A stretch of DNA of 36,284 bases from Patescibacteria group bacterium (GTDB lineage Bacteria > Patescibacteriota > UBA1384 > CAJBMM01). The position numbers and the translations under genes were made by a program. The notes beneath the pieces were generated by a model. It was not told where the DNA came from, did not search any database, and saw only the letters and a list, made by a program, of their open reading frames with translations. Shown in pieces: positions 2,022-31,767 of the stretch (within the stretch, counting starts at the first letter, position 1; each line of letters starts with the position of its first letter). The stretch lies in assembly GCA_041660565.1 (NCBI GenBank), contig JBAZWC010000001.1:136197-172480 (forward strand), given 5' to 3'.

Positions 2022-2215
2022 TGGTTTCGCCGATTCAATATTTAAAAGATGTTTATCAAGAGGTTCAACGAGTTGTTTGGCCTGCACCAAAAACGGTTTT
2101 GGCGCACACCGGCATCGTCGCTCTCTCGATGATTGGATTAATTGCCTTGGTTTCGGCAATCGATTATCTGTTTATTTCAATAATTAAAGCAATTTTGTTT
2201 AAGGGGCAACTATGA
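2021..2215 (+). CDS. secE: preprotein translocase subunit SecE (single-TM form)
   Basis: 64 aa. YLKDVYQEVQRVVWP followed by one TM helix is the typical short SecE layout. It sits immediately upstream of nusG, its start overlaps the rplU stop (TAATG), and its stop TGA overlaps the nusG ATG. Confidence 0.8.
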   Translation: MVSPIQYLKDVYQEVQRVVWPAPKTVLAHTGIVALSMIGLIALVSAIDYLFISIIKAILFKGQL

Positions 2216-2838
2216 ACGCCAAAAAAACACCCGCTACAAAAAATGTCGAAGTTCAGGCCGAAGTGGTAGAAGAATCAAACGCAGAGGTTACTTTCTCTTC
2301 AACTAGCCCGGTAGAAAACTGCCATTGGTATGTTATTCACACCTATTCCGGTTATGAAGAGCAAGTGGCACAGAACTTGCGACAACGTATTCAAACCATG
2401 AATATGGAAGAAAAAATTTTTAACGTGCTAGTGCCAAAAGAAAAACAGATTGAAATCAAAAATGGTAAGCGCAAAACCGTTGAAAACCGCATTTTCCCCG
2501 GTTATGTGATGGTGCAAATGGTGGTGACGGAAGATAGTTGGTACGTTGTACGTAACACACCTAACGTAACCGGATTTATTGGATTTGGCATTCATCCAAC
2601 CCCAATTTCAGAAGAAGAAGTAGAACGCATTAAAAAACGAATGGGTATTGAAGAGCCAAAATATCAAATTGACTTTGATGTTGATGATTTGGTCCGTATT
2701 ACAGATGGCGCGTTGAAGAACTTTGAAGCCAAAGTAATAGATGTTGATCGAACCAAAGGTAAAATTAAAGTTTCAGTAAATATGTTTGGCCGTGAAACCC
2801 CGGTAACTCTTGATTCACTTCAAGTTAAGAAGATGTAA
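2212..2838 (+). CDS. nusG: transcription termination/antitermination factor NusG
   Basis: 208 aa. NGN motif WYVIHTYSGYE, FPGYVMVQM, and a C-terminal KOW-like segment (DLVRITDGALKNFEAKVIDVD). secE-nusG-rplK synteny. Confidence 0.92.
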   Translation: MNAKKTPATKNVEVQAEVVEESNAEVTFSSTSPVENCHWYVIHTYSGYEEQVAQNLRQRIQTMNMEEKIFNVLVPKEKQIEIKNGKRKTVENRIFPGYVMVQMVVTEDSWYVVRNTPNVTGFIGFGIHPTPISEEEVERIKKRMGIEEPKYQIDFDVDDLVRITDGALKNFEAKVIDVDRTKGKIKVSVNMFGRETPVTLDSLQVKKM

Positions 2839-2847
2839 AGGATAATA

Positions 2848-3273
2848 ATGGCAAAAAAGATTAAACAACAAATTAAGATCCAGCTTCCGGCTGGTAAAGC
2901 GACTCCAGCCCCACCGGTTGGCCCAGTTTTGGGTGGTACCGGTATTAATATGATGGAATTTTTGACCAAGTTTAACGAACAAACTCGGGAAAAAGGTAAC
3001 GCTGTTATTCCGGTAGAGTTGACTATTTACGAGGATCGGTCATTTTCATTCATCACCAAAGAGCCGCCAGTTGCGTACTTAATCAAACAGGCATTAAAAG
3101 TGGACAAAGGTTCGGCCAGTCAGCGTAAAGAAAAAATTGGCAAACTAACCAAAGATCAAGTTCGTCAAATTGCCGAGCAAAAACTTTCCGATTTATCCGC
3201 AGCCACTGTTGAAGCAGGTATGAACACCGTGGCCGGCACCGCCCGTTCGATGGGTGTTGACGTCGAAAAATAA
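2848..3273 (+). CDS. rplK: 50S ribosomal protein L11
   Basis: 141 aa. [21 protein letters not shown] is the canonical L11 N-terminus. Confidence 0.95.
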
Positions 3274-3286
3274 ATCAAATATTACA

Positions 3287-3346
3287 AAAGCCCGTAGTAG
3301 ATCAGCCACCAAGGGGGAATGGGGCTGATCATCCACGGGCTTTTTG
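3287..3346 (+). terminator. rho-independent terminator after rplK
   Basis: Long imperfect stem aaagcccgtagtagatcagcc / ggctgatcatccacgggcttt followed by a T-run (ctttttgttg). Confidence 0.7.
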
Positions 3347-3491: not shown

Positions 3492-5360
3492 TTGGAGTCG
3501 ATTTTGAATCAAAACAACCTTTCGTTATCAATCAATCAACACGTAACACAGTCAGACATCATTCGCTGGCTAAACGATAACTGTTATTCGAGATCAGAAA
3601 CCATTTCATCCTATGGACAATACTCCGTTATTGGTGATGTTATTAAGATATTTCCGGTTAATTATCCTAATCCTTTCCAAATATCTTTTTACGGTGATCT
3701 TATAGAAAGTATGCAAAAGTATGCAGATGATCAGAAAACACTAGTTGACCACATGAACATATCACCTAACATTGTAGACTCGGACGAGTTGCGCTTTGAG
3801 CCTGGGCAGTACGTCGTGCACGTAGATCATGGTATCGGATTGTTCAAAACGCTCGGACTTCGTCGCACAGATCAATTTGTAGAAAATAATCTGAGCCATC
3901 GCTTAGAATACCAACCATTTCTGATTATTGAGTATGCCGATGGGGGAGAGTTATTTGTCCCGCCAGAACAATCCGGCAAATTAACGCACTATGTTGGCGC
4001 GCGTCATCCGGTTTTAAGCAAACTGGGATCTCAACGTTGGCAAACCACCAAAAAGAAAATTGAAGAAAGCTTATTTAAAATGTCGCGTGAGCTGCTATTA
4101 ATTGCGGCAAAACGTCAGATAAAACAAAGATCGCCACTTAAAATTCAAGGCGATTGGATAAAGTTGATGTCGGATCAATTCCCGTACGATGAAACCGACG
4201 ATCAGTACAAAGCAATTGAAGCGGTGCTGTCTGATTTATCATCAACCAGAATAATGGATCGTCTTATTTGCGGCGACGCTGGTTTTGGCAAGACCGAGGT
4301 GGCGGTGCGGGCGGCGGGGGCTTGTGCAAGCGCCGGATATCAAGTGGCAATTCTAACTCCAACTACCATCTTGGCGCGTCAGCACACTGCCACTTTTACA
4401 AATCGTTTAGCCAGTTTGCCGATCAATATTGTAGAACTAAGCCGGTTTGTATCCGAAAAAGATCAGCAAAGCGCGATAGAACGAATCTCATCCGGTAAAG
4501 CCGACATTATTATTGGTACTCACAGATTGTTATCAAAAGATGTTAAATTTCATAACCTGGGAATGTTGATTGTGGACGAGGAGCAGAAATTTGGAGTAAA
4601 ACACAAAGAAGCCATCAAACATCAACGCGCCGAAGTGGATGTGCTAACGTTGTCCGCAACCCCAATTCCGCGGACGTTATTCCTGGGCCTGTCTGGGTTA
4701 CGTGATATTAGTTTGATCGTCTCACCGCCCAAAAAGCGTCTGCCAACTATTTCCAAAGTTGGAAAAACCGACGAAGGAATAATCATTCAAGCACTAAAAG
4801 AGGAAAAAGCGCGAGGAGGACAATCGTTTATTTTGCATAATGAAGTTGAAACAATTTCTAACCGAGTTGATCAGCTTAGAAAACAATTGCCAGATCATGT
4901 AATTAAATTTGCTCACGGGCAGATGCCAGAGAACCAGCTTGCCAACACTATGTCCGAGATGATTAACGGCAAAATTGATGTATTGGTTACCTCGACTATT
5001 ATTGAAAACGGTTTGGATATTCCAAATGCCAATACCTTGATTGTGGAAAAAGCCGATCATTTTGGTTTGTCTGATCTGTATCAAATTAGAGGACGAATTG
5101 GCCGGAGTGATAAGCAATCATACGCCTACTTCTTTTATGCTGTCCCAGAGCTATCGCAACTTGCTCGACAGCGATTTACCGCGTTGCTCGAATCGGATCA
5201 ACTTGGTAGCGGCTACACCATCGCCACACGCGACCTAGAGATTCGCGGTGGGGGAAACGTGCTTGGCAAAGAACAGCACGGCAATATGGAGGCCGTTGGT
5301 CTATCTTTATATACAAAAATGTTGCAACTGGTTATCAAAAAAATGCAAGAAAGAGCTTAG
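3492..5360 (+). CDS. mfd: transcription-repair coupling factor, short form (RID + superfamily-2 translocase only)
   Basis: 622 aa. CarD/TRCF RNAP-interaction motif GQYVVHVDHGIGLF, Walker A GDAGFGKTEVA, DEEQKFG, and a TRG-like segment ATRDLEIRGGGNVLGKEQHG. The TTG start is uncertain. Confidence 0.75.
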   Translation: MESILNQNNLSLSINQHVTQSDIIRWLNDNCYSRSETISSYGQYSVIGDVIKIFPVNYPNPFQISFYGDLIESMQKYADDQKTLVDHMNISPNIVDSDELRFEPGQYVVHVDHGIGLFKTLGLRRTDQFVENNLSHRLEYQPFLIIEYADGGELFVPPEQSGKLTHYVGARHPVLSKLGSQRWQTTKKKIEESLFKMSRELLLIAAKRQIKQRSPLKIQGDWIKLMSDQFPYDETDDQYKAIEAVLSDLSSTRIMDRLICGDAGFGKTEVAVRAAGACASAGYQVAILTPTTILARQHTATFTNRLASLPINIVELSRFVSEKDQQSAIERISSGKADIIIGTHRLLSKDVKFHNLGMLIVDEEQKFGVKHKEAIKHQRAEVDVLTLSATPIPRTLFLGLSGLRDISLIVSPPKKRLPTISKVGKTDEGIIIQALKEEKARGGQSFILHNEVETISNRVDQLRKQLPDHVIKFAHGQMPENQLANTMSEMINGKIDVLVTSTIIENGLDIPNANTLIVEKADHFGLSDLYQIRGRIGRSDKQSYAYFFYAVPELSQLARQRFTALLESDQLGSGYTIATRDLEIRGGGNVLGKEQHGNMEAVGLSLYTKMLQLVIKKMQERA

Positions 5361-5716
5361 GCGGCTTCCTCGGCACCAAAACCGTTTGCCTCGTAAACTT
5401 GTGGTAGCAAGTCGGTTAGAGTTTCTAAATTTTGGTTTATAACGGCCTCGTAGTGAAGATCGTCAGTCAAAAATCCTAATGTAAGCTCGGACGCATGATG
5501 GTCGCAATCAACGCATTTATAATCGGCGGGTACGTCTTGCAATGTGTAGCAATTAGAACAAATGCCCGTTTTACCATCAAAATGCTCATCTAATAATCTA
5601 AGCAATTCTTCTCGGTCTTTATGATCTAGCTTTAGTAACTCGGCTTTCTGATTGGTTGTGTGATCTTTTTCCACTCTATCAAAATCAATGCTCGTTTGTC
5701 CTTCTGGTGATTTCAT
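5357..5716 (-). CDS. hypothetical protein with CxxC-x13-CxxC zinc-ribbon-like motif
   Basis: 119 aa and the only convincing minus-strand ORF. GGAG lies ~10 nt upstream of the ATG. Motif CSNCYTLQDVPADYKCVDC. Convergent with mfd, overlapping it by 4 nt. Confidence 0.5.
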   Translation of the reverse strand: MKSPEGQTSIDFDRVEKDHTTNQKAELLKLDHKDREELLRLLDEHFDGKTGICSNCYTLQDVPADYKCVDCDHHASELTLGFLTDDLHYEAVINQNLETLTDLLPQVYEANGFGAEEAA

Positions 5717-5775
5717 ATTATCTCAACTCCGATTATTTAATTTACTCATCTATAATATACATATAGTATTATATT

Positions 5776-6858
5776 ATGTCTAAATCAAATTATACCCATA
5801 ACGAATTATTATTACTATCCGGTTTTTATAAAATTGGGCCGGTGGGATATCAAAAACTAGTAGCATCGGAGACAGATTTAATCAGATGTTCCGCGTCAAA
5901 TCTTACTCAAGTGGGGATTAAGCCTCAGACCGCAGCTGAATTTATCCAATTTCGCGATCAGTTTGATGTAGATTACGCTCGCGAAAAATTAGATGAGTGT
6001 AACGTCAAAACGGTGGCGATTACCGATGATGAGTATCCGACAATGCTTAAAGAAATTACCGATCCGCCTTACCTACTTTACGTGTTAGGTGATACCGCGG
6101 TGTTAAATTCGGTTTGTTTGGCGGTGGTAGGCAGTCGCAATCATTCGCATTATGGCGTGGCGGCGGTAGAGAAATTAATACCCGATGTGGTGGCGCACGG
6201 CATCACCATTGTTTCCGGTCTGGCTTACGGCATAGATGCCAAGGCGCACCGAATGTGTGTTGAATCCGAGGGCAAAACAGTTGCAGTGGTGGGGTCCGGA
6301 CTAGACAAACTGTACCCCACCGACAATCAGTTACTGGCGCGTGACATTATTAAAACAGGCGGCGCCATTATCTCCGAATATCCGCTGGGCACCGCTCCCT
6401 TGCGCCAACATTTTCCGGCACGAAATCGAATAATCTCAGGAATTTCTCAAGCCACGTTGGTAATTGAATGTGATATCAAAAGCGGCGCCATGATTACTGC
6501 TCACCACGCTATCGACCAAAATAGGGATGTTTTGGCGTTGCCGGGCACTATTACCAGCGGGTTTTCAGCCGGACCGAATAGGTTAATTAAAATGGGTGCA
6601 AAGTTAATAGAGAGTTCGCAGGATATTATCGAGAATTATAATTTATCATGGTCGGGCAATAAAAATCAGTTGATCGCAGAGCCGATGAAGGGGCACGAAC
6701 AGGCGGTTTTTGAATTACTATCAACCGACCCGGTTCATATTGACCAATTGATAGAATTATCTACACTAAAAAGTGATGAGGTAGGTTCTGCCTTGCTTTT
6801 TTTGGAGATGAAAGGCCTGGTGCGCAACATCGGCGCAGCAAATTATGTTCGGCGATAA
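5776..6858 (+). CDS. dprA: DNA-processing protein DprA (Smf)
   Basis: 360 aa. VVGSRNHSHYG, SGLAYGIDAKAHR, FPARNRIISG. Upstream of topA, as in many bacteria. Confidence 0.9.
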   Translation: MSKSNYTHNELLLLSGFYKIGPVGYQKLVASETDLIRCSASNLTQVGIKPQTAAEFIQFRDQFDVDYAREKLDECNVKTVAITDDEYPTMLKEITDPPYLLYVLGDTAVLNSVCLAVVGSRNHSHYGVAAVEKLIPDVVAHGITIVSGLAYGIDAKAHRMCVESEGKTVAVVGSGLDKLYPTDNQLLARDIIKTGGAIISEYPLGTAPLRQHFPARNRIISGISQATLVIECDIKSGAMITAHHAIDQNRDVLALPGTITSGFSAGPNRLIKMGAKLIESSQDIIENYNLSWSGNKNQLIAEPMKGHEQAVFELLSTDPVHIDQLIELSTLKSDEVGSALLFLEMKGLVRNIGAANYVRR

Positions 6859-12415: not shown

Positions 12416-12576
12416 AAATGGTTGTTAATGGTTAATTGTTAAAAGTTGACTGTTATCCAGTACCTTAATTAACTTACTTGGGATTCTGGCAGGAGAATAA
12501 GGCCGCACTTTGTGGTCTTTAATCCTGTCAGAAAAACTCGCCCCAACGCGGGGCAAATACCTTGGAGGATACTTCG

Positions 12577-13671
12577 ATGAAGGGTAAGTGGCTGGTGTTC
12601 GCCGTGGTGGCGTTGTTTGCCACCACTTCGTCGTTCGCTCAACTGTCGGTTGGGGGCGTCATAACCTCCACCGACAAGTCGCACAACATGAGTGTCATGT
12701 CCTCGCTGGTGGTTTCGGCCACCAACCCGGGGACAGATGAGGTGCTTGGGACCGTGAATAACGGTACCCCGATCGCCACGTCTTTCGTCGATTTACGCTT
12801 CACCCTGGTGCTCGACAACGTTGAGCTGCGGGGTAGCGTCGACCAGCTTGTCGACGCGATGATCTTCCCTGACGTGATGTCAAAGGATCACTCGCCGATG
12901 GTCCGGACCACAACCCCGTCGTATTCCCAGTTTCAATGGGAGCGGGACAAGACCCAACCGCGAATCTTCCGGTTGACCGTACCGGCTGGCTCATTGCCAG
13001 ACCGAAACGGCTACACCATGAAGTTCAGGGTGTGGGCGGCACAGTCGTCTGTCACGAAGGCCATGGGCGCACGGCTCTGGGGAAATCGCTCGGGTGAGTT
13101 TCTTGAGGCGTCGTTCCACTTCATGATCAAGCGCACGTGTGCGCCGAAGTCTGAATGGGAGATGGCTACTCAGCTGCAGGGGTTCAACCTGCTAATCGAG
13201 CAGCCGTCAGAGGCTTCGGCACCGGCTCGTGATCGGAAGTACGACGAGAAGCATCAGGAGAGGGCAGACCGATCGGACGTCCGTGAGGATGACCGAGAAG
13301 TCGCGCCGGCTCCGGCGACGAAGCCTGTGGTCAAGCAACAGACGGTTAGGGCGTCGATCAGGGTGGTTGACCCCAAGACTGGACAGACGATCGATTACCG
13401 CGGTCGGTTCGCGGTCACCACGACCAGTATCGAGCCGATCGATTGCAAGGAAGGGCCGGGATTTCAGGTTGACGAGACTGCCCCCAAGGGGGTGTGGACC
13501 GGCCACCTGTCACACGGCGTCGCGACGGCCGAGTTTCCCTCAGACCCAGCCAAGGTATGGTTGGTGGCGTGGGTGGAGTCGGCATCTGGTTGGTCGTTGT
13601 CTCGGGCAATTCGTTTGTCGCCCGAGAATGAGAATCCGGAGCTTCGGTTCCGCCTCGGAGGGTCGAAATGA
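12577..13671 (+). CDS. secreted hypothetical protein (GC-rich cassette 1, gene A)
   Basis: ATG at 12577 with GGAGGA 7 nt upstream; the ORF-track TTG at 12562 is probably an extension. Signal peptide MKGKWLVFAVVALFATTSSFA-Q. G/C-dominated third codon positions. No family recognised. Confidence 0.65.
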   Translation: MKGKWLVFAVVALFATTSSFAQLSVGGVITSTDKSHNMSVMSSLVVSATNPGTDEVLGTVNNGTPIATSFVDLRFTLVLDNVELRGSVDQLVDAMIFPDVMSKDHSPMVRTTTPSYSQFQWERDKTQPRIFRLTVPAGSLPDRNGYTMKFRVWAAQSSVTKAMGARLWGNRSGEFLEASFHFMIKRTCAPKSEWEMATQLQGFNLLIEQPSEASAPARDRKYDEKHQERADRSDVREDDREVAPAPATKPVVKQQTVRASIRVVDPKTGQTIDYRGRFAVTTTSIEPIDCKEGPGFQVDETAPKGVWTGHLSHGVATAEFPSDPAKVWLVAWVESASGWSLSRAIRLSPENENPELRFRLGGSK

Positions 13672-14513
13672 AGTTCCTGTGGATTGCCGCTATCCTGCTC
13701 TGCGCCGACATGGCGACAGCGCAGGCGACGTATGATCGCGGTGTGGTCCGGTCGCACCCGGCCCGATCGGCTGGGCTGTCGCCGGACGGGCAGTCGATGA
13801 CGAATTTCGCCAAGGAAGGCATATTCGGCATCATGCTGCGCGACTTCTTCGGTTTCAATGACAAGGATGTCAGCGAAGCCAAGGTCAAAGCCGCAGCGGG
13901 CAATTTCACGCTGTGGCAGCTAGCTCCTGGTAGTCGGTTCGACGACATGTGTGGGGGAACCCCCATCAAGTCGGTCGGACCGGGACGCACGGCGTTCTGG
14001 TTAGAGTACTATCGTCTCGAGGTTAGTTCGGGCAAGGTTGCCCGATTCGTGACGATCTGCGCTAACGGGATCAAGCTGTCCAAGGAAGGCACTCAGATCA
14101 AGCCGCACGCCGTAGTGGTTACTCGGGACGTCCCGCGCGACGTCATTCGAGACGTTCCCGGTGAGAACGTTTACGTGTTCCAGTACGAGGAACGAGTCGT
14201 CGAGGTGCCCGGCCCAGAACGGGTTGAGTACATCGACAGGCCGATTCTCGTTCCGGTGGCACCTCTGTACGGCGAGGGGCCGCGGACGGTAGGGTCGCAC
14301 GTGGTGCAGACCTATCCCGTGGCGTTTGTCGGCTACACGTTCCGATCATCTGATCGGGCGAAATGCCGGCCACAGCCGAGGCCACGGCCAAGGCCAACCC
14401 CGCCGGGCTGTACGCCCGGAGTAATTCCACCCGGGCCACCAATACGGATTGGCCCACCCAACCCCCAAGACCCGAACCAGGGCTTGGGACCGGCTCCTCC
14501 GATACGGAGGTAG
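13668..14513 (+). CDS. secreted hypothetical protein with Pro-rich C-terminus (GC-rich cassette 1, gene B)
   Basis: The ATGA start/stop overlap with gene A indicates translational coupling. Signal peptide MKFLWIAAILLCADMATAQA. C-terminal RPQPRPRPRPTPPGCTPGVIPPGPPIRIGPPNPQDP. Confidence 0.6.
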   Translation: MKFLWIAAILLCADMATAQATYDRGVVRSHPARSAGLSPDGQSMTNFAKEGIFGIMLRDFFGFNDKDVSEAKVKAAAGNFTLWQLAPGSRFDDMCGGTPIKSVGPGRTAFWLEYYRLEVSSGKVARFVTICANGIKLSKEGTQIKPHAVVVTRDVPRDVIRDVPGENVYVFQYEERVVEVPGPERVEYIDRPILVPVAPLYGEGPRTVGSHVVQTYPVAFVGYTFRSSDRAKCRPQPRPRPRPTPPGCTPGVIPPGPPIRIGPPNPQDPNQGLGPAPPIRR

Positions 14514-20956: not shown

Positions 20957-21838
20957 ATGGCCAAAACCACTAAGAAAACGGCTGCAATTATTGCAGAGCA
21001 AATCTCGGACGAACGACCAGTTGTAGTTGAAGAAACTACTGACGAATCTCTAAATGACGTTTTACAAGAATCCGGTGCCGGTGCAACGGACGCTGAAGTT
21101 GACGTAGAATCTCCAATTGGCGAAGACAAAGCGGTAGAGCAAAGTGCCAAAGATTTGGCCGAAAACGAAGTTGAAGAAGTTGAAGCGGTAGAAGAACCGG
21201 TTAAAAAACAACATTCAGCTAAGGTTGCGACACCACGAAAAGCGCCACTGCATTTCAAAAAATATCGTGAAGCTGTCAAAGACCTAGATCTAACCCAAAG
21301 TTATTCGGTTGAAGGCGCACTAGAGGTTGTCAAAAAAACCTCGATTACCAAGTTTGACGCCACCGTAGAAGCACACATTAAACTATCGGTGACTAACCAG
21401 CGTGGTGTTATTCATTTACCCTCCGGCAGCGGTAAAGAGAAAAAAGTAATGGTAGTTACGGCAGATAATATCGATGCCTTTATTACTCAAGTTGAAGCAG
21501 GGAAAATCGATTTTGATATTGTAGTAGCTATTCCTTCAGTAATGCCAAAATTAGCCAAAACTGCCAAAATATTGGGACCTAAAGGGTTAATGCCTAATCC
21601 GAAATCCGGCACGGTTACCGAAGATGTTGAAAAAGCCAAAGCCGAGTTTGCTTCTGGCCGCGTTGAGTACAAACAAGACAAAGGTGGTGTGGTGCATTTG
21701 GGCATTGGTAAAGTTTCAATGACGCCCGAACAGCTAAAAGGCAACTACTTGGCGCTTGTTTCGGCATTGCCTCAGCCAAAAATTCAATCGATTTATCTAT
21801 CTTCAACCATGGGCCCCGCGGTAAAAGTGTCGCTGTAA
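20957..21838 (+). CDS. rplA: 50S ribosomal protein L1 with a ~95-aa acidic N-terminal extension
   Basis: ATG at 20957 (MAKTTKK); the ORF-track TTG at 20900 is probably an extension. The L1 core starts around HFKKYREAV and includes ILGPKGLMPNPKSGTVT. Confidence 0.9.
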   Translation: MAKTTKKTAAIIAEQISDERPVVVEETTDESLNDVLQESGAGATDAEVDVESPIGEDKAVEQSAKDLAENEVEEVEAVEEPVKKQHSAKVATPRKAPLHFKKYREAVKDLDLTQSYSVEGALEVVKKTSITKFDATVEAHIKLSVTNQRGVIHLPSGSGKEKKVMVVTADNIDAFITQVEAGKIDFDIVVAIPSVMPKLAKTAKILGPKGLMPNPKSGTVTEDVEKAKAEFASGRVEYKQDKGGVVHLGIGKVSMTPEQLKGNYLALVSALPQPKIQSIYLSSTMGPAVKVSL

Positions 21839-21842
21839 TCAT

Positions 21843-21871
21843 CTGTCATTCCCGCGAAGGCGGGAATCCAG
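21843..21871 (+). repeat. TGTCAT-headed palindromic unit
   Basis: ctgtcattcccgcgaaggcgggaatccag, with stem attcccgc / gcgggaat, 5 nt after the rplA stop. Confidence 0.7.
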
Positions 21872-21896
21872 TCTATGAAAAACTAACTCCTATTTC

Positions 21897-22009
21897 GTAG
21901 CCCAGACTTCTTGACCTGCCGTAGCTCGAAGAGCGAAGGAGGTTAGTCTGCTCATTGGTACGCTACCTCCTACGCTAAAGCTTCGGAAGGTCAGGGAAGC
22001 GTGGGCTAC
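21897..22009. repeat. long imperfect hairpin (~45-nt arms)
   Basis: gtagcccagacttcttgacctgccgtagctcgaagagcgaaggaggt is roughly complementary to acctcctacgctaaagcttcggaaggtcagggaagcgtgggctac. Confidence 0.6.
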
Positions 22010-22073
22010 GGACGTTCTTTAATACGAGAATCACAACCGATGTTAGGTGTGTCCACAAAGGAGGGACACAGAA

Positions 22074-22703
22074 ATGGCCTCGCAAACAGCAAGCCCATCA
22101 TGCTACGTGAATCCGCATGAATGGGAAGAGCGCGAAGTGACGGAATGTACCCGCCTATTCAGGTTAACCAACATTCCGGAGTGGGATGGGCTACGAGACC
22201 GCATAAGCAGGTGTCCGGTTTGGGGGACTACTTGCATTGCAGTCCCGCTGTGCATGACACGTCCACAGCTGCTTGAAATGCTGATGATGCTGGGTGTCAA
22301 GATCGCGGGAAATGACCCAGTGGCGGCAGATTGCGAGGGGGAGGATTACCCCCTTCGAGTCGGCACATTCGGGGTCGATCTGCCATGGTTTTTTGCCCGC
22401 CGCGAGTTGGGCGAGCACCCATTTGGTTTTCCACTTGACAGTATGGGTGCCCTTTACCGGTCTATGGGTGCTTACGGTATCGCGCCGGTCGAGTTGGCGC
22501 TCTGGGCAATCGCGCGACACGTCGCTTCTGGCGGTGCATTGCCAACACTACCAACATGGATCGCCGGCCTCAATGTTGTGGGAGGCGGATCGATATTGGC
22601 GCTTGACATGGCCAACGGTCCGTTGAGGATTACCGCCGTTGCACACAACATCCAAGCGTCGAACATTGCCGGCCTGCCATGGTATTTCGCGCCGGCACGG
22701 TGA
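22074..22703 (+). CDS. hypothetical protein, no signal peptide (GC-rich cassette 2)
   Basis: ATG at 22074 with AAGGAGGG at 22058-22065. 209 aa and GC-rich (37/60 G+C hand-counted at 22441-22500). No motif recognised. Several overlapping ORFs in other frames are expected for GC-rich DNA. Confidence 0.55.
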   Translation: MASQTASPSCYVNPHEWEEREVTECTRLFRLTNIPEWDGLRDRISRCPVWGTTCIAVPLCMTRPQLLEMLMMLGVKIAGNDPVAADCEGEDYPLRVGTFGVDLPWFFARRELGEHPFGFPLDSMGALYRSMGAYGIAPVELALWAIARHVASGGALPTLPTWIAGLNVVGGGSILALDMANGPLRITAVAHNIQASNIAGLPWYFAPAR

Positions 22704-22780
22704 GCCAACATCGCGATTCGCACTGGGCGCTTGGGTCAACACGACCCCGGCGCCCGTTTATTTCTCCTCACCTCTCCGAG

Positions 22781-22912
22781 CCGTAGGTCTACGAGCCGGT
22801 GGCCGGCCTACGGCCACCCTCTCCTCTTGGAGGAGAGGGGACAATAGGAATTCCTTCTCCTCTGGAGGAGAAGGTGGAACGCTAAGCGTCCCGTAACCCC
22901 GCTTAGCGGGGT
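22781..22912. repeat. cluster of five short GC-rich palindromic units
   Basis: The units are: ccgtagg...cctacgg (22781-22813); ccctctcctc-ttg-gaggagaggg (22817-22839); ccttctcctc-tg-gaggagaagg (22853-22874); ggaacgctaagcgtccc (22876-22892); ccccgcttagcgggg (22896-22910). The last two are an inverted copy of 1455-1492. Confidence 0.75.
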
Positions 22913-22947
22913 GCCTGTAAGGCGGATGAGGAGGGAATCAAAAATCA

Positions 22948-22976
22948 TTGACAATTACAATCAAATAAGATAAGAT
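22948..22976 (+). promoter_or_regulatory. sigma-70-like promoter candidate for rplJL
   Basis: TTGACA (22948-22953), 17-nt spacer, TAAGAT (22971-22976). Confidence 0.4.
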
Positions 22977-23115
22977 ATAAATAAGTTTCCAAAGACCATC
23001 AGGCCGCTAACGCGGGTAATCTTGTAAAAGTACTGATGCAGGAGCAAAGTCAATCAAAAGACAGCTGCTTTTACTTTGGACACAGAGCAGTTTTTTATTT
23101 GCGAACGGAGTAAAA
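22977..23115 (+). promoter_or_regulatory. possible rplJ (L10) leader with attenuator-like hairpin
   Basis: A ~140-nt untranslated leader ends in ctgct...agcag followed by ttttttattt (23065-23100), just before the rplJ Shine-Dalgarno. L10 leaders are known in other bacteria, but I cannot confirm the fold by eye. Confidence 0.3.
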
Positions 23116-23637
23116 ATGGCCAAAACCAAAGAAGCCAAAAATCAACTTAAAGACAGTTTGTCCGATAAACTTAAGCGCGCCAAAATTGCGGTGCTATTAA
23201 AATATCAGGGCTTAAAGGTCAAAGATTTAGAAGAGCTACGCAAAAGCTTGCGAAATATGGGTATCGACATGGTTGTGCCCAAAAACTCTATCGCTAAAAT
23301 TAGCTTGAAAGAGCAGGGGATAGAAGTTACTGGTGATGCCTTTAGTCAACCATTGGCGATGATCTTTTCTTATGATGACGAAGTCAAACCGGCTAAAGAA
23401 ATCACATTGTTTGCTAAATCCCACGAAATTGTGGAAATTTTAGGTGGAATTTTGGAAAACAAGATGATTGACGCCAGCGTTATCAAACAGCTATCCACTT
23501 TGCCATCACGTGAAGAGTTGCTTGCCAAAATGGTTGGCTCCATCGCTTCGCCGCTTAACGGATTGGTCAATGTTTTGTCCGGAGTGCCGCGTAGCCTGGT
23601 TAACGCCTTAAAACAAATCGAATTACAAAAAAAGTAA
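23116..23637 (+). CDS. rplJ: 50S ribosomal protein L10
   Basis: 173 aa. The position immediately upstream of rplL and the L10-like N-terminus (KEAKNQLKDSLSDKLKRAKIAVLLKYQGLKVKDLEELRKSLR). Confidence 0.93.
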   Translation: MAKTKEAKNQLKDSLSDKLKRAKIAVLLKYQGLKVKDLEELRKSLRNMGIDMVVPKNSIAKISLKEQGIEVTGDAFSQPLAMIFSYDDEVKPAKEITLFAKSHEIVEILGGILENKMIDASVIKQLSTLPSREELLAKMVGSIASPLNGLVNVLSGVPRSLVNALKQIELQKK

Positions 23638-24124: not shown

Positions 24125-25447
24125 ATGAAAAACGGACAATTCAAATTAATCGCCACATCAGGCAAAGCTCGTGCTGGGGAATTGCAGACAGCGCATGGTT
24201 TGGTGCAAACACCGTGCTTTATGCCGGTTGGTACCAAGGCTAGCGTCAAATCGCTTGACCCTACAATTCTTGAACAACTAAACGCTCAAGTAGTTTTGGC
24301 AAACACTTATCACCTGGCAATGTCTCCCGGATCAGCACTAATTTCGAAACAGGGTGGATTGCATAACTTTATGCAATGGAATCACCCAATTTTAACCGAT
24401 TCGGGCGGGTTTCAAGTGTTTTCGCTAGGTAAAGGTAAAAAGAACCGCACCGAAGAATCGCCTGATCAGGTGATTCCCGAAGCGACGATTACTGAGGATG
24501 GGGTTACTTTTAAATCGCATCGCGATGGAAGTGAACATTTATTTACCCCGGAAATTGCGATGAAAATTCAGGCAGAGCTTGGCGCTGATATTATTATGGC
24601 GTTTGATGAATGCCCGCCATATCCATCAACCCGAGCTGAATATCTTGCCGGAATGGAGCGAACCCATCGTTGGCTAACCCGCTGTATCAATGAAAAGAAA
24701 TCGCTAGAATCCTCGTCGTCATTTCGACCAAATCAGAAGACGGAGGACGGAGGACAGAATACGGATAATTTGTCATTTCGACCCGGGGAGCGCGTCAGCG
24801 CGACCGCGTTGGAGAAATCTCAAGAAAAAATCCCCTTCCGCTTTCATCAAAATAGTCCGTCCGATCAATTACTATTTGGCATTGTTCAGGGTGGGGTAGA
24901 CGAAGATCTGCGCAAGACCTCAGCCAAATTTGTGGCATCGCAAAATCTGCCCGGCGTTGCCATTGGGGGAGTGGCTAATGGGGGAGAGAGCCGAGCCGAA
25001 ATGGTGCAGCAAGTGGAATGGGCGCTGGCTGAGCTACCACAGGATAAACCAAGGTATCTAATGGGAATTGGCACGCCGCTAGATTTGCTTGATTTTATAA
25101 CACGGGGGATTGATATGTTTGACTGCGTGTTGCCAACTCGTTTAGGCCGCAATGGCGCATTCTGGATGGTTGAAAATGGCAAGGGAACCAGAGTGCAAAT
25201 TAAAAACTCCAGATTCACTAACGACTCACGCCCGCTAACCGAGGGTTGTAAGTGTGCAACTTGCACCAGATTCAGCCGCGCATACGTTCACCATTTGTTT
25301 GTAGAGAACGAGCCGCTTTCGATGCAATTGTTATCAATTCATAATATATTCATACTTATTGATCTTACGCATCAAATACGCCAAGCAATCATCCAAAACG
25401 AACTCAAAGCATTATCTACCAGTCTGAGGCGAGTCTGGAAAGACTAA
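24125..25447 (+). CDS. tgt: tRNA-guanine (queuine) transglycosylase carrying a ~60-aa in-frame insertion
   Basis: 440 aa. TDSGGFQVFS, LLFGIVQGG, DMFDCVLPTR, and the zinc site CKCATCTRFSRAYVHHL. An extra segment lies between HRWLTRCINEKK and QLLFGIVQGG. Confidence 0.9.
   Translation: MKNGQFKLIATSGKARAGELQTAHGLVQTPCFMPVGTKASVKSLDPTILEQLNAQVVLANTYHLAMSPGSALISKQGGLHNFMQWNHPILTDSGGFQVFSLGKGKKNRTEESPDQVIPEATITEDGVTFKSHRDGSEHLFTPEIAMKIQAELGADIIMAFDECPPYPSTRAEYLAGMERTHRWLTRCINEKKSLESSSSFRPNQKTEDGGQNTDNLSFRPGERVSATALEKSQEKIPFRFHQNSPSDQLLFGIVQGGVDEDLRKTSAKFVASQNLPGVAIGGVANGGESRAEMVQQVEWALAELPQDKPRYLMGIGTPLDLLDFITRGIDMFDCVLPTRLGRNGAFWMVENGKGTRVQIKNSRFTNDSRPLTEGCKCATCTRFSRAYVHHLFVENEPLSMQLLSIHNIFILIDLTHQIRQAIIQNELKALSTSLRRVWKD
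24715..24845 (+). repeat. composite TGTCAT-family repeat inserted in frame within tgt
   Basis: Two left-end copies: cgtcatttcgacc at 24717 and tgtcatttcgaccc at 24771. Then ttggagaaatct (24809-24820) and ccccttcc (24832-24839), in the same order and spacing as in the intergenic element at 1366-1436. Confidence 0.7.
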
Positions 25448-25619: not shown

Positions 25620-25680
25620 GTTAGTGCAACTAAAGCGATTAACAACCTTGGTTGGTTGTTAGTCTCTTAGTCGCACTAAC
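25620..25680 (+). promoter_or_regulatory. long hairpin in the 5' leader of the collagen-like gene
   Basis: Outer stem gttagtgc (25620-25627) / gcactaac (25673-25680) is perfect. Inner arm attaacaacc / ggttgttagt matches 9/10. Confidence 0.5.
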
Positions 25681-25719
25681 GCACATACTCTGAAATTCTC
25701 TGGGAGGAGAAATACGGCC

Positions 25720-26298
25720 ATGAAGTGGCTCACAATGTTGTTCGTCATGGCGGCCGTTGTAATGGCCGCAACAATTCCTGCGTTCGCGCAGGATGATGAT
25801 CGGATCGACGGGCAGCCAAAGGCAGATCAGGTGGGGCAGACGTCCCAGCTGGTCGCGCCACCGGACCAGTCCACCCAGTCGACCGAAACCCTGAAAGGGG
25901 ACAAGGGCGACACCGGCGAGAAGGGCGATCCTGGCGCAACCGGCCCGGCCGGTCAGCCAGGTCATGAGGGCAAGATGGGACCAGCTGGTCCCACTGGTCA
26001 CCCTGGACGTCAGGGTCGTACCGGCCCTCGTGGTCGTGATGGTAAGAACGGCCACGACGGTCGCAATGGCCGGGATGCGGTCGTCAACTACGACGCAATC
26101 GTGGGTCATGTGATGGAGCTTTTGGAGAAGAAGTGGGAAAATCCCAACAACCTCCCCAAGCCGTTGAAGGATGACCACACACTGCTCCAAGTCGTCGGCA
26201 CCACCGCGATTGCGGCCCTGTACTGGAACTGGATCATCGGGATCGCGATGATCATATTCGTTGTAGTCTTTGTTGTTCATATTAAGCGCGGCTGGTAG
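25720..26298 (+). CDS. collagen-like triple-helix-repeat protein with signal peptide and C-terminal TM anchor (GC-rich cassette 3)
   Basis: GGGAGGAG Shine-Dalgarno. Signal peptide MKWLTMLFVMAAVVMAATIPAFA-Q. 20 uninterrupted G-X-Y triplets. C-terminal hydrophobic WNWIIGIAMIIFVVVFVV followed by HIKRGW. Confidence 0.75.
   Translation: MKWLTMLFVMAAVVMAATIPAFAQDDDRIDGQPKADQVGQTSQLVAPPDQSTQSTETLKGDKGDTGEKGDPGATGPAGQPGHEGKMGPAGPTGHPGRQGRTGPRGRDGKNGHDGRNGRDAVVNYDAIVGHVMELLEKKWENPNNLPKPLKDDHTLLQVVGTTAIAALYWNWIIGIAMIIFVVVFVVHIKRGW
25897..26076 (+). repeat. (G-X-Y)20 collagen-like coding repeat
   Basis: GDK GDT GEK GDP GAT GPA GQP GHE GKM GPA GPT GHP GRQ GRT GPR GRD GKN GHD GRN GRD, aa 60-119. Confidence 0.9.
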
Positions 26299-31535: not shown

Positions 31536-31673
31536 TGAATCCGGAAATTATTTTCCCTGTCATCCTGAACTTGATTCAGGATCTACATAATAAGAACCAA
31601 GGACTGGATTCTTAGATCTTGTCCGGAATGACACAACCCTGAGTAAATCATCAAACTGGAATTTCCGGATTCA
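31536..31673. repeat. nested palindromic element: 14-nt perfect inverted repeat enclosing two TGTCAT-family units
   Basis: tgaatccggaaatt (31536-31549) / aatttccggattca (31660-31673). Inside are ctgtcatcctgaacttgattcaggatc (plus orientation) and gatcttgtccggaatgacaca (minus orientation). Confidence 0.75.
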
Positions 31674-31736
31674 TAGTACATATTTTTGCATTAGCCAGAT
31701 AATCTGGTTATCATTATAAGTGTATATCTATTATAT

Positions 31737-31767
31737 GGATTCCGGGTCGAGCCCGGAATGACAGGGG
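31737..31767 (-). repeat. TGTCAT-headed palindromic unit (reverse orientation)
   Basis: ggattccgggtcgagcccggaatgacagggg, with stem ttccggg / cccggaa, ending 5 nt before the ATG at 31772. Confidence 0.7.

Follow-up and report, generated by a model that had tools for sequence, protein, structure and literature searches.

The DNA analysed here, called the window below, is a stretch of 36,284 nt (positions 136,197 to 172,480) of the 516-kb contig JBAZWC010000001.1 (assembly GCA_041660565.1). It originates from a genome of the Patescibacteria, or candidate phyla radiation (CPR), near Candidatus Berkelbacteria; its ribosomal protein L10 is 51–57% identical to L10 from metagenome-assembled genomes (MAGs) of Berkelbacteria and other Patescibacteria, the closest relatives compared, with none above 60% in the set. 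The local gene order is ybaB-like, pth, rplA, rplJ, rplL, tgt. Between rplA (20957–21838, plus strand; ribosomal protein L1 with an acidic N-terminal extension; Pfam Ribosomal_L1, E 2e-36; 49–53% identical to the L1 of relatives by tblastn) and rplJ (23116–23637, plus strand; ribosomal protein L10; Pfam Ribosomal_L10, E 8e-21) lies a spacer of 1277 bp, in agreement with the gap of about 1.28 kb given in an earlier note on this sequence. The spacer contains a GC-rich gene of 209 aa (22074–22703, plus strand), which we identified by phmmer, hhalign and tblastn as a solitary, diverged homologue of the variable (target) proteins of CPR diversity-generating retroelements (DGRs), together with several kinds of hairpin repeats.

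The open reading frame (ORF) stands out by its composition, with a GC content of 57.6% vs 44.5% for the window, 43.8% for rplA and 41.0% for rplJ, and the Shine-Dalgarno motif AAGGAGG is located 9 nt upstream, both as previously described. The public gene call covers just the C-terminal 149 aa; the 209-aa reading is supported by homology that begins at residue 12, upstream of that call. A word-indexed protein search with the ORF returned the window's own 149-aa call as the sole match, and neither the ORF nor its homologues matched Pfam, PHROGs, PADLOC or PDB at the sequence or profile level. A phmmer search of 1.84 billion representative proteins recovered P0002 (E 1.5e-10) plus P0003–P0006 and P0008, and profile searches, including hmmsearch, extended the set by P0010–P0018. 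Aligned by hhalign to the core subfamily linked to DGRs, the ORF matched over residues 12–205 (98%, E 1.5e-13, 193 columns), and tblastn with the target protein of locus L013 hit the ORF with E 8e-11. Motifs common to the family are W..RE, R.QLL, ADC.GE..P, H.PF and GG.G.S.E..LY. Measured against P0002 and P0005, the gene is complete and undisrupted. The designation as an orphan can therefore not be kept, as full-length distant homologues exist and several of them are DGR variable proteins.

These findings also bear on the idea that the ORF is an artefact, either of a chimeric assembly or as a chance reading frame in a GC-rich non-coding insert. The abrupt GC shift and the short public gene call would fit such an origin, as would other assemblies of the family that suffer from collapsed repeats or frameshifts (L012, L010). 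Against it stand the homology over the full length, extending upstream of the 149-aa call, a strong Shine-Dalgarno site combined with a homologous terminator, native genes on both flanks of a single contig, native repeat families that occur inside the insert as well as elsewhere in the window, and homologues in other CPR genomes with the same GC contrast. We regard an artefact as extremely unlikely.

Upstream of the ORF we detected no sigma-70-like promoter, in line with the earlier note. The same note had proposed that a 7-bp hairpin around the Shine-Dalgarno motif (AAGGAGG at 22058–22064) could gate translation. This hairpin exists (22048–22070, plus strand; −12.1 kcal/mol), but the case for gating is weak, with z = −2.0 and 6 of 200 shuffles folding equally well, and the structure is not conserved in the leaders of the homologues. 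At the other end of the gene we predicted an intrinsic terminator that had not been listed before, a GC-rich nested hairpin (22724–22756, 5-nt loop) followed by GTTTATTTCT (22724–22765 in total, plus strand). It is homologous to the terminator behind P0002, the closest homologue, in locus L025 (GGCGCT..GG.GTC..CCGGCGCCCGTTT.TTT). The protein has neither a signal peptide nor a transmembrane segment. Structure prediction yielded AlphaFold2 (AF2) models of poor confidence for the ORF (pLDDT, predicted local distance difference test, of 51) and of moderate confidence for P0012 (pLDDT 69); in Foldseek searches against PDB and BFVD nothing reached E ≤ 0.001, so that no fold was assigned and the C-type-lectin-like VR fold typical of DGR targets was not demonstrated.

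The family to which the ORF belongs is small, with fewer than 20 clusters among billions of proteins, all of them without a Pfam domain; its named members come from Berkelbacteria and Patescibacteria MAGs, and a scan of viral contigs revealed none. At five independent loci (L013, L017, L022, L029 and L012) a member is the variable protein of a DGR. In L013, L014 and L018 (P0012), the variable repeat (VR) at 1558–1675 is repeated at 2031–2145, and all 21 of 21 mismatches are an adenine in this downstream copy; bAvd on the minus strand and an RVT_1 reverse transcriptase (RT) follow. L017 (P0018) has an adenine-only pair of VR and template repeat (TR) with bAvd and RT (RVT_1), L022 has TR, Avd and RT, and L029 (P0008) a TR with an Avd fragment at the contig end. 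L012 (P0003) encodes Avd and RT, and here the VR and TR were seemingly collapsed by the assembler. In L015, L016 and L019 (P0015), nothing of the DGR is left but a C-terminal piece of the RT 90 nt behind the gene, and L009 (P0006) has apparently retained no more than the conserved stretch found ahead of the TR in L013 and L017, as judged by eye and not by alignment. Finally, L007, L010, L024, L025 (P0002) and L027 (P0005) have no DGR part within their flanks. The family loci thus constitute a series from complete DGRs via RT remnants to solitary genes. In the P0015 loci, where the protein occurs on 9 contigs, the RT remnant corresponds to the C-terminal ~94 aa and lies ~90–370 nt downstream of the target, i.e., these are decayed DGRs.

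DGR clade 2 occurs solely in Patescibacteria, with targets that typically have no recognisable domain (Roux et al. 2021, PMC8144416); a family of domain-less DGR targets in Patescibacteria fits this description. Each homologue stands alone between differing housekeeping genes (ruvC and ROK-ruvA, SLT and purD, the polA 5′-3′ exonuclease and ferredoxin, htpX and ligA, fic and a tRNA synthetase), and the homologues are richer in GC than their flanks, for instance 67% vs 44% in L010. A 23S_rRNA_IVP/Avd-like gene 3.4 kb from the L010 homologue was considered as a DGR part and rejected, as neither TR nor RT is present there and tblastn showed it to be unrelated to the Avd proteins of the family.

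Several observations concern the surroundings of the homologues. Behind a TATAAT promoter, a conserved 5′ leader of ~150 nt precedes the gene in L007 (4850–5000), L009 (2545–2693), L013 (760–903), L025 (1840–1996) and L010 (4850–5000). Within this leader, a hairpin (CCTTTGGGCCTA...CAGCTAGGCCCAAAGG) occurs along with GAAAGAGGTGTTCAGCTATG, the region of ribosome binding. The leader, which the window copy lacks, is a possible cis-acting regulatory RNA of DGR target genes. In L010 (5420–5470), P0004 carries a frameshift just ahead of the VR, and the +1 frame restores the C terminus typical of the family (...YMGGSIRCRNACGS...); this may be an error of the MAG consensus in a hypervariable region, or a pseudogene. 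Upstream of P0006 in L009 (2160–2450), small hairpins fill ~200 bp behind a tRNA-like segment, after which the tRNA-like 3′ end is repeated (GACTCCCACCCTGGGCAC occurs twice), an arrangement suggestive of integration at a tRNA gene.

How does the window copy relate to this series? Its segment 22575–22690 (plus strand) aligns to the VR stretch of L013, L017, L022 and L029, but most of the invariant scaffold of the family is lost from it (RC.N, GS..SL.V.F.A..GL.V). A hand count, which is weak evidence, found a pyrimidine at the end of about 21 of its 38 codons; for the active VR of L013 the figure is about 30 of 39. The bias towards pyrimidine-ending codons that marks an AAC-templated VR is not seen in the segment. 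Neither blastn nor an adenine-tolerant sliding scan found a TR for the ORF in the 36-kb window, which reaches 22 kb upstream and 13.5 kb downstream of it; the same scans recovered the TRs of L013, L017, L022 and L029. A direct repeat of 22585–22605 at 22713–22733 was rejected as a degenerate TR, being 71% identical with mismatches that are not adenine-specific. Neither RVT_1 nor Avd turned up when all sizeable window ORFs were searched with Pfam, four RT fragments of the DGRs in L012, L013 and L017 had no tblastn match in the window, and the same was true of three Avd proteins. A degenerate TR-compatible pattern had 0 matches in metagenome contigs, in a collection that lacks the source contig and is hence uninformative on this point. 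The window copy is like the clade 2 variable proteins in its full-length homology to proteins equipped with a C-terminal VR, adenine-biased TR, bAvd and RT, in its CPR host, in the absence of a signal peptide, transmembrane segment and Pfam domain, and in the GC-rich hairpin downstream. Unlike them, it has no TR, Avd or RT within 36 kb, its VR scaffold has diverged, and it is without a promoter, the structured 5′ leader (both of which other family members possess) and the N-terminal extension of ~50 aa found in the members of 260 aa. Most likely, it is a stranded descendant of a DGR target that is no longer diversified.

The chief competitor of this interpretation is an active DGR acting from afar, in which TR, Avd and RT elsewhere on the 516-kb chromosome would still rewrite the gene at its 3′ end. 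Members of the family are genuine DGR targets, the gene has remained intact and full-length compared with P0002 and P0005, and non-adjacent targets, including targets more than 100 kb away, are documented for cellular DGRs (PMC5758913). DGRs moreover carry a GC-rich inverted repeat, forming a hairpin or cruciform, shortly downstream of the VR and its initiation of mutagenic homology (IMH) site (PMC5758913), and the GC-rich nested hairpin at 22724–22756 lies ~40 nt past the end of the VR-equivalent segment, as the corresponding repeats do in L013 and L017. With its 5-nt loop and T-tract it is, however, equally an ordinary terminator, of the kind common to the solitary P0002, whereas the hairpins downstream of the DGR-linked homologues have 4-nt loops of the type G..A/T. 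The lack of TR, RT and Avd over −22 kb to +13.5 kb, the loss of most of the VR scaffold and the lower share of pyrimidine-ending codons speak against ongoing diversification as well, and we hold a remote DGR to be unlikely. If real, it would place a hypermutating locus next to ribosomal protein genes.

Some points weigh against a stranded DGR target. As the window represents 36 kb of 516 kb and remote targets at more than 100 kb have been described, an active remote DGR is conceivable. The ORF is only 23–30% identical to the family members, and its two nearest relatives, P0002 and P0005, are solitary, so that this sub-branch may never have been linked to a DGR. No fold could be assigned to the ORF family, given AF2 models of poor (ORF) and moderate (P0012) confidence and the empty Foldseek searches. 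Lastly, as it is devoid of the promoter and leader of the other homologues, the gene could be silent.

The site itself turned out to be different from what had been assumed. The earlier note had placed the ORF inside one of the most conserved operons. In the relatives L001 and L006, the rplA-rplJ spacer spans ~270 bp, made up of the terminator hairpin of rplA, a promoter of the form TTGAC(A/T) and the conserved leader. The promoter and the leader, neither of which had been listed before, are intact in the window: rplJ has a TTGACA-17-TAAGAT promoter (22948–22976, plus strand; 10 of 12 consensus positions), in the same position relative to the leader as the TTGAC(A/T)-type promoters of relatives, and a 5′ leader (GTTTCCAAAGACCATCAGG...CTGATGCAGGAG..., ~22985–23115, plus strand) conserved with L001, L004 and L006. 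The fold of this leader by itself is not significant (z = −1.1), and the Rfam covariance model L10_leader gave no match upstream of rplJ, neither at the gathering score nor up to E = 10. The additional ~1.1 kb of the window (21839 to ~22945) is located 5′ of the promoter and leader. Comparing the spacers of related genomes, as had been suggested, we found that this DNA is lineage-specific: at the same site, L002 has ~1.2 kb of extra DNA with a Pfam-less ORF of 134 aa and L005 ~1.9 kb with three ORFs, and the 209-aa ORF is absent from the rplA-rplJ site in all closest relatives compared (L001, L002, L005, L006), i.e., it is not the conserved native gene that, according to the earlier note, would have refuted its reading. 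The rplA-rplJ spacer is the boundary of two transcription units and tolerates cargo; the interior of an operon was not split.

In the paradigm of E. coli and Bacillus, the transcription units rplKA and rplJL meet at a boundary with an L10 leader. The window resembles it in that a promoter dedicated to rplJ and a conserved, structured leader lie 3′ of rplA, preceded by an rplA terminator in the relatives. It differs from the paradigm in the missing Rfam L10_leader match, in the distance of rplK, in the gene behind rplL, and in the repeats (an Ssn-related-motif hairpin and a long palindrome, see below) that stand where the relatives have the rplA terminator. The nusG-rplK genes are found at 2212–3273, with a terminator hairpin at 3286–3344; 17.7 kb separate them from rplA, and behind rplL comes tgt instead of rpoB(C). 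With rplK so far from rplA and tgt in place of rpoB, the classical ribosomal cluster is already scattered in this genome.

The first of the repeats, called the TGTCAT unit in the earlier note and present as stated there, is TGTCATTCCCGCGAAGGCGGGAATCCAG (21844–21871, plus strand), with a perfect 8-bp stem and a 4-nt loop; window shuffles contained 0 matches to it. It agrees in 27 of 28 positions with the consensus of the Neisseria Transformation Sequence (NTS), CGTCATTCCCGCGMAVGCGGGAATCYRG, the one mismatch being at position 1. The NTS, for which one mismatch is allowed, contains dRS3 (Nat Commun 2025, PMC11893778), and the Ssn-related motif (SRM) was described for SsnA, a single-domain GIY-YIG single-strand nuclease whose gene is often flanked by the motif (PMC11893778). 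Like these elements, the window unit has an oriented GTCAT head, a ATTCCCGCG...GCGGGAAT stem and a CYRG tail, is intergenic and recurs in related genomes. Unlike them, it resides in a CPR host, a group not mentioned in PMC11893778; no ssnA-like GIY-YIG gene was detected among the window ORFs scanned with Pfam, small unannotated ones included, and there is one strict copy in 36 kb. The unit also conforms to the degenerate SRM pattern, whose regular expression matched once in the window vs 0.11 times expected from shuffles. A weak Rfam match to FtrB overlaps the hairpin; Rfam searches of the whole window at the gathering score and of the region 21700–23250 at E ≤ 10 yielded nothing beyond FtrB and miRNA matches at chance level.

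The 28-mer is identical in L001 and near-identical in L003 and L025, and strict SRM copies exist in L001, L003, L024 and L025. That it is so conserved between genomes whose L10 proteins are ~55% identical suggests that a repeat/nuclease system is active in CPR. The copies are positioned at 6311–6338 in L001, inside the tgt ORF (5351–6586), where the unit reads in frame as CHSREGGNP, at 3315–3342 in L025, within the range of ligA, and at 993–1020 in L003, in the rplJ-rplL spacer. P0002 in L025 is followed by two TGTCAT hairpin units, and a TGTCAT-type unit is also found near the L024 homologue. Looser units of TGTCAT plus an 8-bp stem occur in the window at 31559 and 31762. They form the ends (TGTCATCCTGAACTTGATTCAGGAT ... 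ATTCCGGGTCGAGCCCGGAATGACA), in inverted orientation, of an intergenic element of ~205 bp (31558–31763), which has a third, GGAATGACA end at ~31625–31635. In addition, the TGTCATTTCGACCC-headed repeat of the ftsW-rplU spacer (1366–1450) is present in frame inside tgt (24125–25447), at 24717–24850, with a second GTCATTTCGAC head at 24717; the encoded Tgt has 440 aa with an insert of ~50 aa.

Behind the TGTCAT unit follows a long imperfect palindrome (21895–22010) with ~47-nt arms of ~80% complementarity and a ~21-nt loop, after which comes TTCTTTAAT. It corresponds to the hairpin with arms of ~45 bp noted before, and the fold of 21839–22076 has −101.5 kcal/mol (z = −6.9). A second copy of the palindrome was found neither in the window nor in the loci fetched, and it has no Rfam family; with TTCTTTAAT behind it, it might be a weak rplA terminator. 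An alignment to the conserved leader hairpin of the homologues (CCTTTGGGCCTA...TAGGCCCAAAGG) was unconvincing, and the palindrome was rejected as its counterpart.

Downstream of the gene is a cluster of short GC-rich hairpin units (22781–22912), like a bacterial interspersed mosaic element (BIME); the fold of 22704–22950 has z = −6.4. The GC-rich palindromic units reported there could be retraced as perfect stems at 22798–22818, 22817–22839, 22853–22874 and 22896–22912, accompanied by imperfect ones. The last two hairpins (22873–22913) recur in inverted orientation at 1455–1495 (88% over 41 nt, E 1.8e-6). This module is held by an element of ~190 bp (1366–1557) that resembles a miniature inverted-repeat transposable element (MITE), with inverted termini CTGTCATTTCGAC / GTCGAGATGACAG (bounds TGTCATTTCGAC / GTCGAGATGACA). 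In other loci, three sequence patterns found none of the window GC hairpin units, and blastn found neither of the spacer segments 21872–22073 and 22704–22950. Known systems for comparison are the clusters of repetitive extragenic palindromic (REP) sequences and BIMEs of enterobacteria and the Rickettsia palindromic elements (RPEs). The window cluster is similar to REP/BIME in that short GC-rich hairpins are strung together in a spacer at a gene 3′ end and one module is dispersed, and the TGTCAT-headed repeat lies in frame within tgt as RPEs lie in genes. It is dissimilar in that no transposase of the RAYT/IS200 type was seen and the units have no sequence relationship with REP or RPE.

From the repeats on both sides of the ORF, the earlier note had suggested a repeat-mediated insertion. 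In such a model, repeats, ORF and repeats would form one composite mobile cassette that entered the ribosomal operon like a MITE or transposon, or by recombination. Consistent with such a cassette, copies of the hairpin families are scattered through the genome, two TGTCAT hairpin units likewise lie just downstream of P0002, the closest homologue, and the spacer content varies among relatives. The structure of the insert argues otherwise. There are no terminal inverted repeats and no target-site duplication around it; the repeats on the left come from other families than those on the right and do not copy them in either inverted or direct orientation; and the sole direct repeat that brackets the gene (AGGCGGGAATC / AGGAGGGAATC) is an 11-mer with one mismatch, estimated to be at chance level for 1.5 kb. 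Pfam and a tRNA scan identified no transposase, integrase or tRNA in the window region. The distribution of the repeats points in the same direction: ~12 other loci with homologues are not flanked by the GC hairpins or the palindrome of the window (only the TGTCAT-type units near the L024 and L025 homologues recur), and the same repeat families occur without cargo at 1366–1557 and 31558–31763 and even inside tgt. The TGTCAT unit and the GC hairpins are copies of dispersed repeat families and not the vehicle of the gene. We therefore consider a composite cassette distinctly improbable; it is simpler to assume that selfish hairpin repeats built up independently in a spacer that tolerates them.

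The variable spacer content together with the NTS-like unit brings to mind the "minimal mobile elements" of Neisseria, i.e., an exchange hot spot of the type NTS-gene-NTS. Here, the conserved rplA and rplJ flanks would let transformation and homologous recombination swap the cargo, with SRM hairpins and an Ssn-type nuclease modulating uptake. Four states of the spacer have been found (empty in L001 and L006, a 134-aa ORF in L002, three ORFs in L005, and the window gene), an NTS/SRM unit is located here and another between rplJ and rplL in L003, dprA is encoded in the window, and the biology of Ssn and NTS is documented (PMC11893778). Yet the window lacks an ssnA-like GIY-YIG gene, 36 kb contain one strict SRM, and the relatives, at ~55% L10 identity, are too distant to tell allelic exchange from independent insertions, which makes this mechanism very unlikely in our estimation. 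A broader proposal is that the rplA-rplJ boundary is a recurrent cargo-exchange site in Berkelbacteria-like CPR, where NTS/Ssn hairpins and natural transformation shuffle small genes, including DGR targets that are uncoupled from their retroelement or still rewritten in trans by a distant DGR. We rate it as quite improbable, too; if true, it would extend the logic of Neisseria NTS/Ssn and of minimal mobile elements to CPR, and would put a hypermutable gene directly upstream of the rplJL operon.

Taken together, the spacer probably holds a stranded relative of DGR targets among known hairpin repeats at a transcription-unit boundary. The locus is a combination of known kinds, namely a solitary member of the CPR DGR targets, an NTS/SRM hairpin, REP/BIME-like repeats and a terminator-promoter boundary. 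In this scenario, ~1.1 kb of non-native DNA would have accumulated upstream of the intact rplJ promoter and leader in a Berkelbacteria-like CPR genome; the non-native origin is suggested by the GC content of 57.6% vs 44.5%, the varied housekeeping genes that surround the homologues, and the relatives' spacers of ~270 bp or with other cargo. In the DGR relatives, the template repeat is reverse-transcribed with adenine-specific errors and the copy overwrites the 3′ end of the gene. The window copy would have lost its link to the retroelement and its diversification would have ended. As no promoter is visible before the ORF, any transcripts would reach it from rplA, reading through the SRM hairpin and the palindrome. 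The transcript would end at the gene's own terminator (22724–22765) and rplJ would then start from its own promoter, which the terminator and the hairpin cluster would shield. By analogy with DGR targets, the product would be a binding protein; like other CPR targets it has no export signal.

What looked like an orphan splitting a ribosomal operon can thereby be explained as a DGR target family member left behind between a terminator and a promoter. The series from complete DGRs via RT remnants to solitary genes could be of use for studying the survival of DGR targets after loss of the retroelement in reduced CPR genomes. Furthermore, the near-exact Neisseria NTS motif in CPR genomes and the in-frame TGTCAT-headed repeats in tgt suggest that hairpin repeats of the Ssn type are active in the phylum.

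Two more GC-rich islands exist in the window, at 12562–14513 (59–63% GC) and 25639–26298 (~55% GC), neither with similarity to the DGR target family, its RT or Avd. The former contains two Pfam-less ORFs, one of which begins like a signal peptide, and the latter a collagen-repeat ORF (25720–26298) overlapped by a long antisense ORF. The 17.7-kb stretch between rplK and rplA encodes mfd, dprA, topA, recR, an aquaporin, dus, GC-rich islands, DUF11 surface proteins, prfB and pth.

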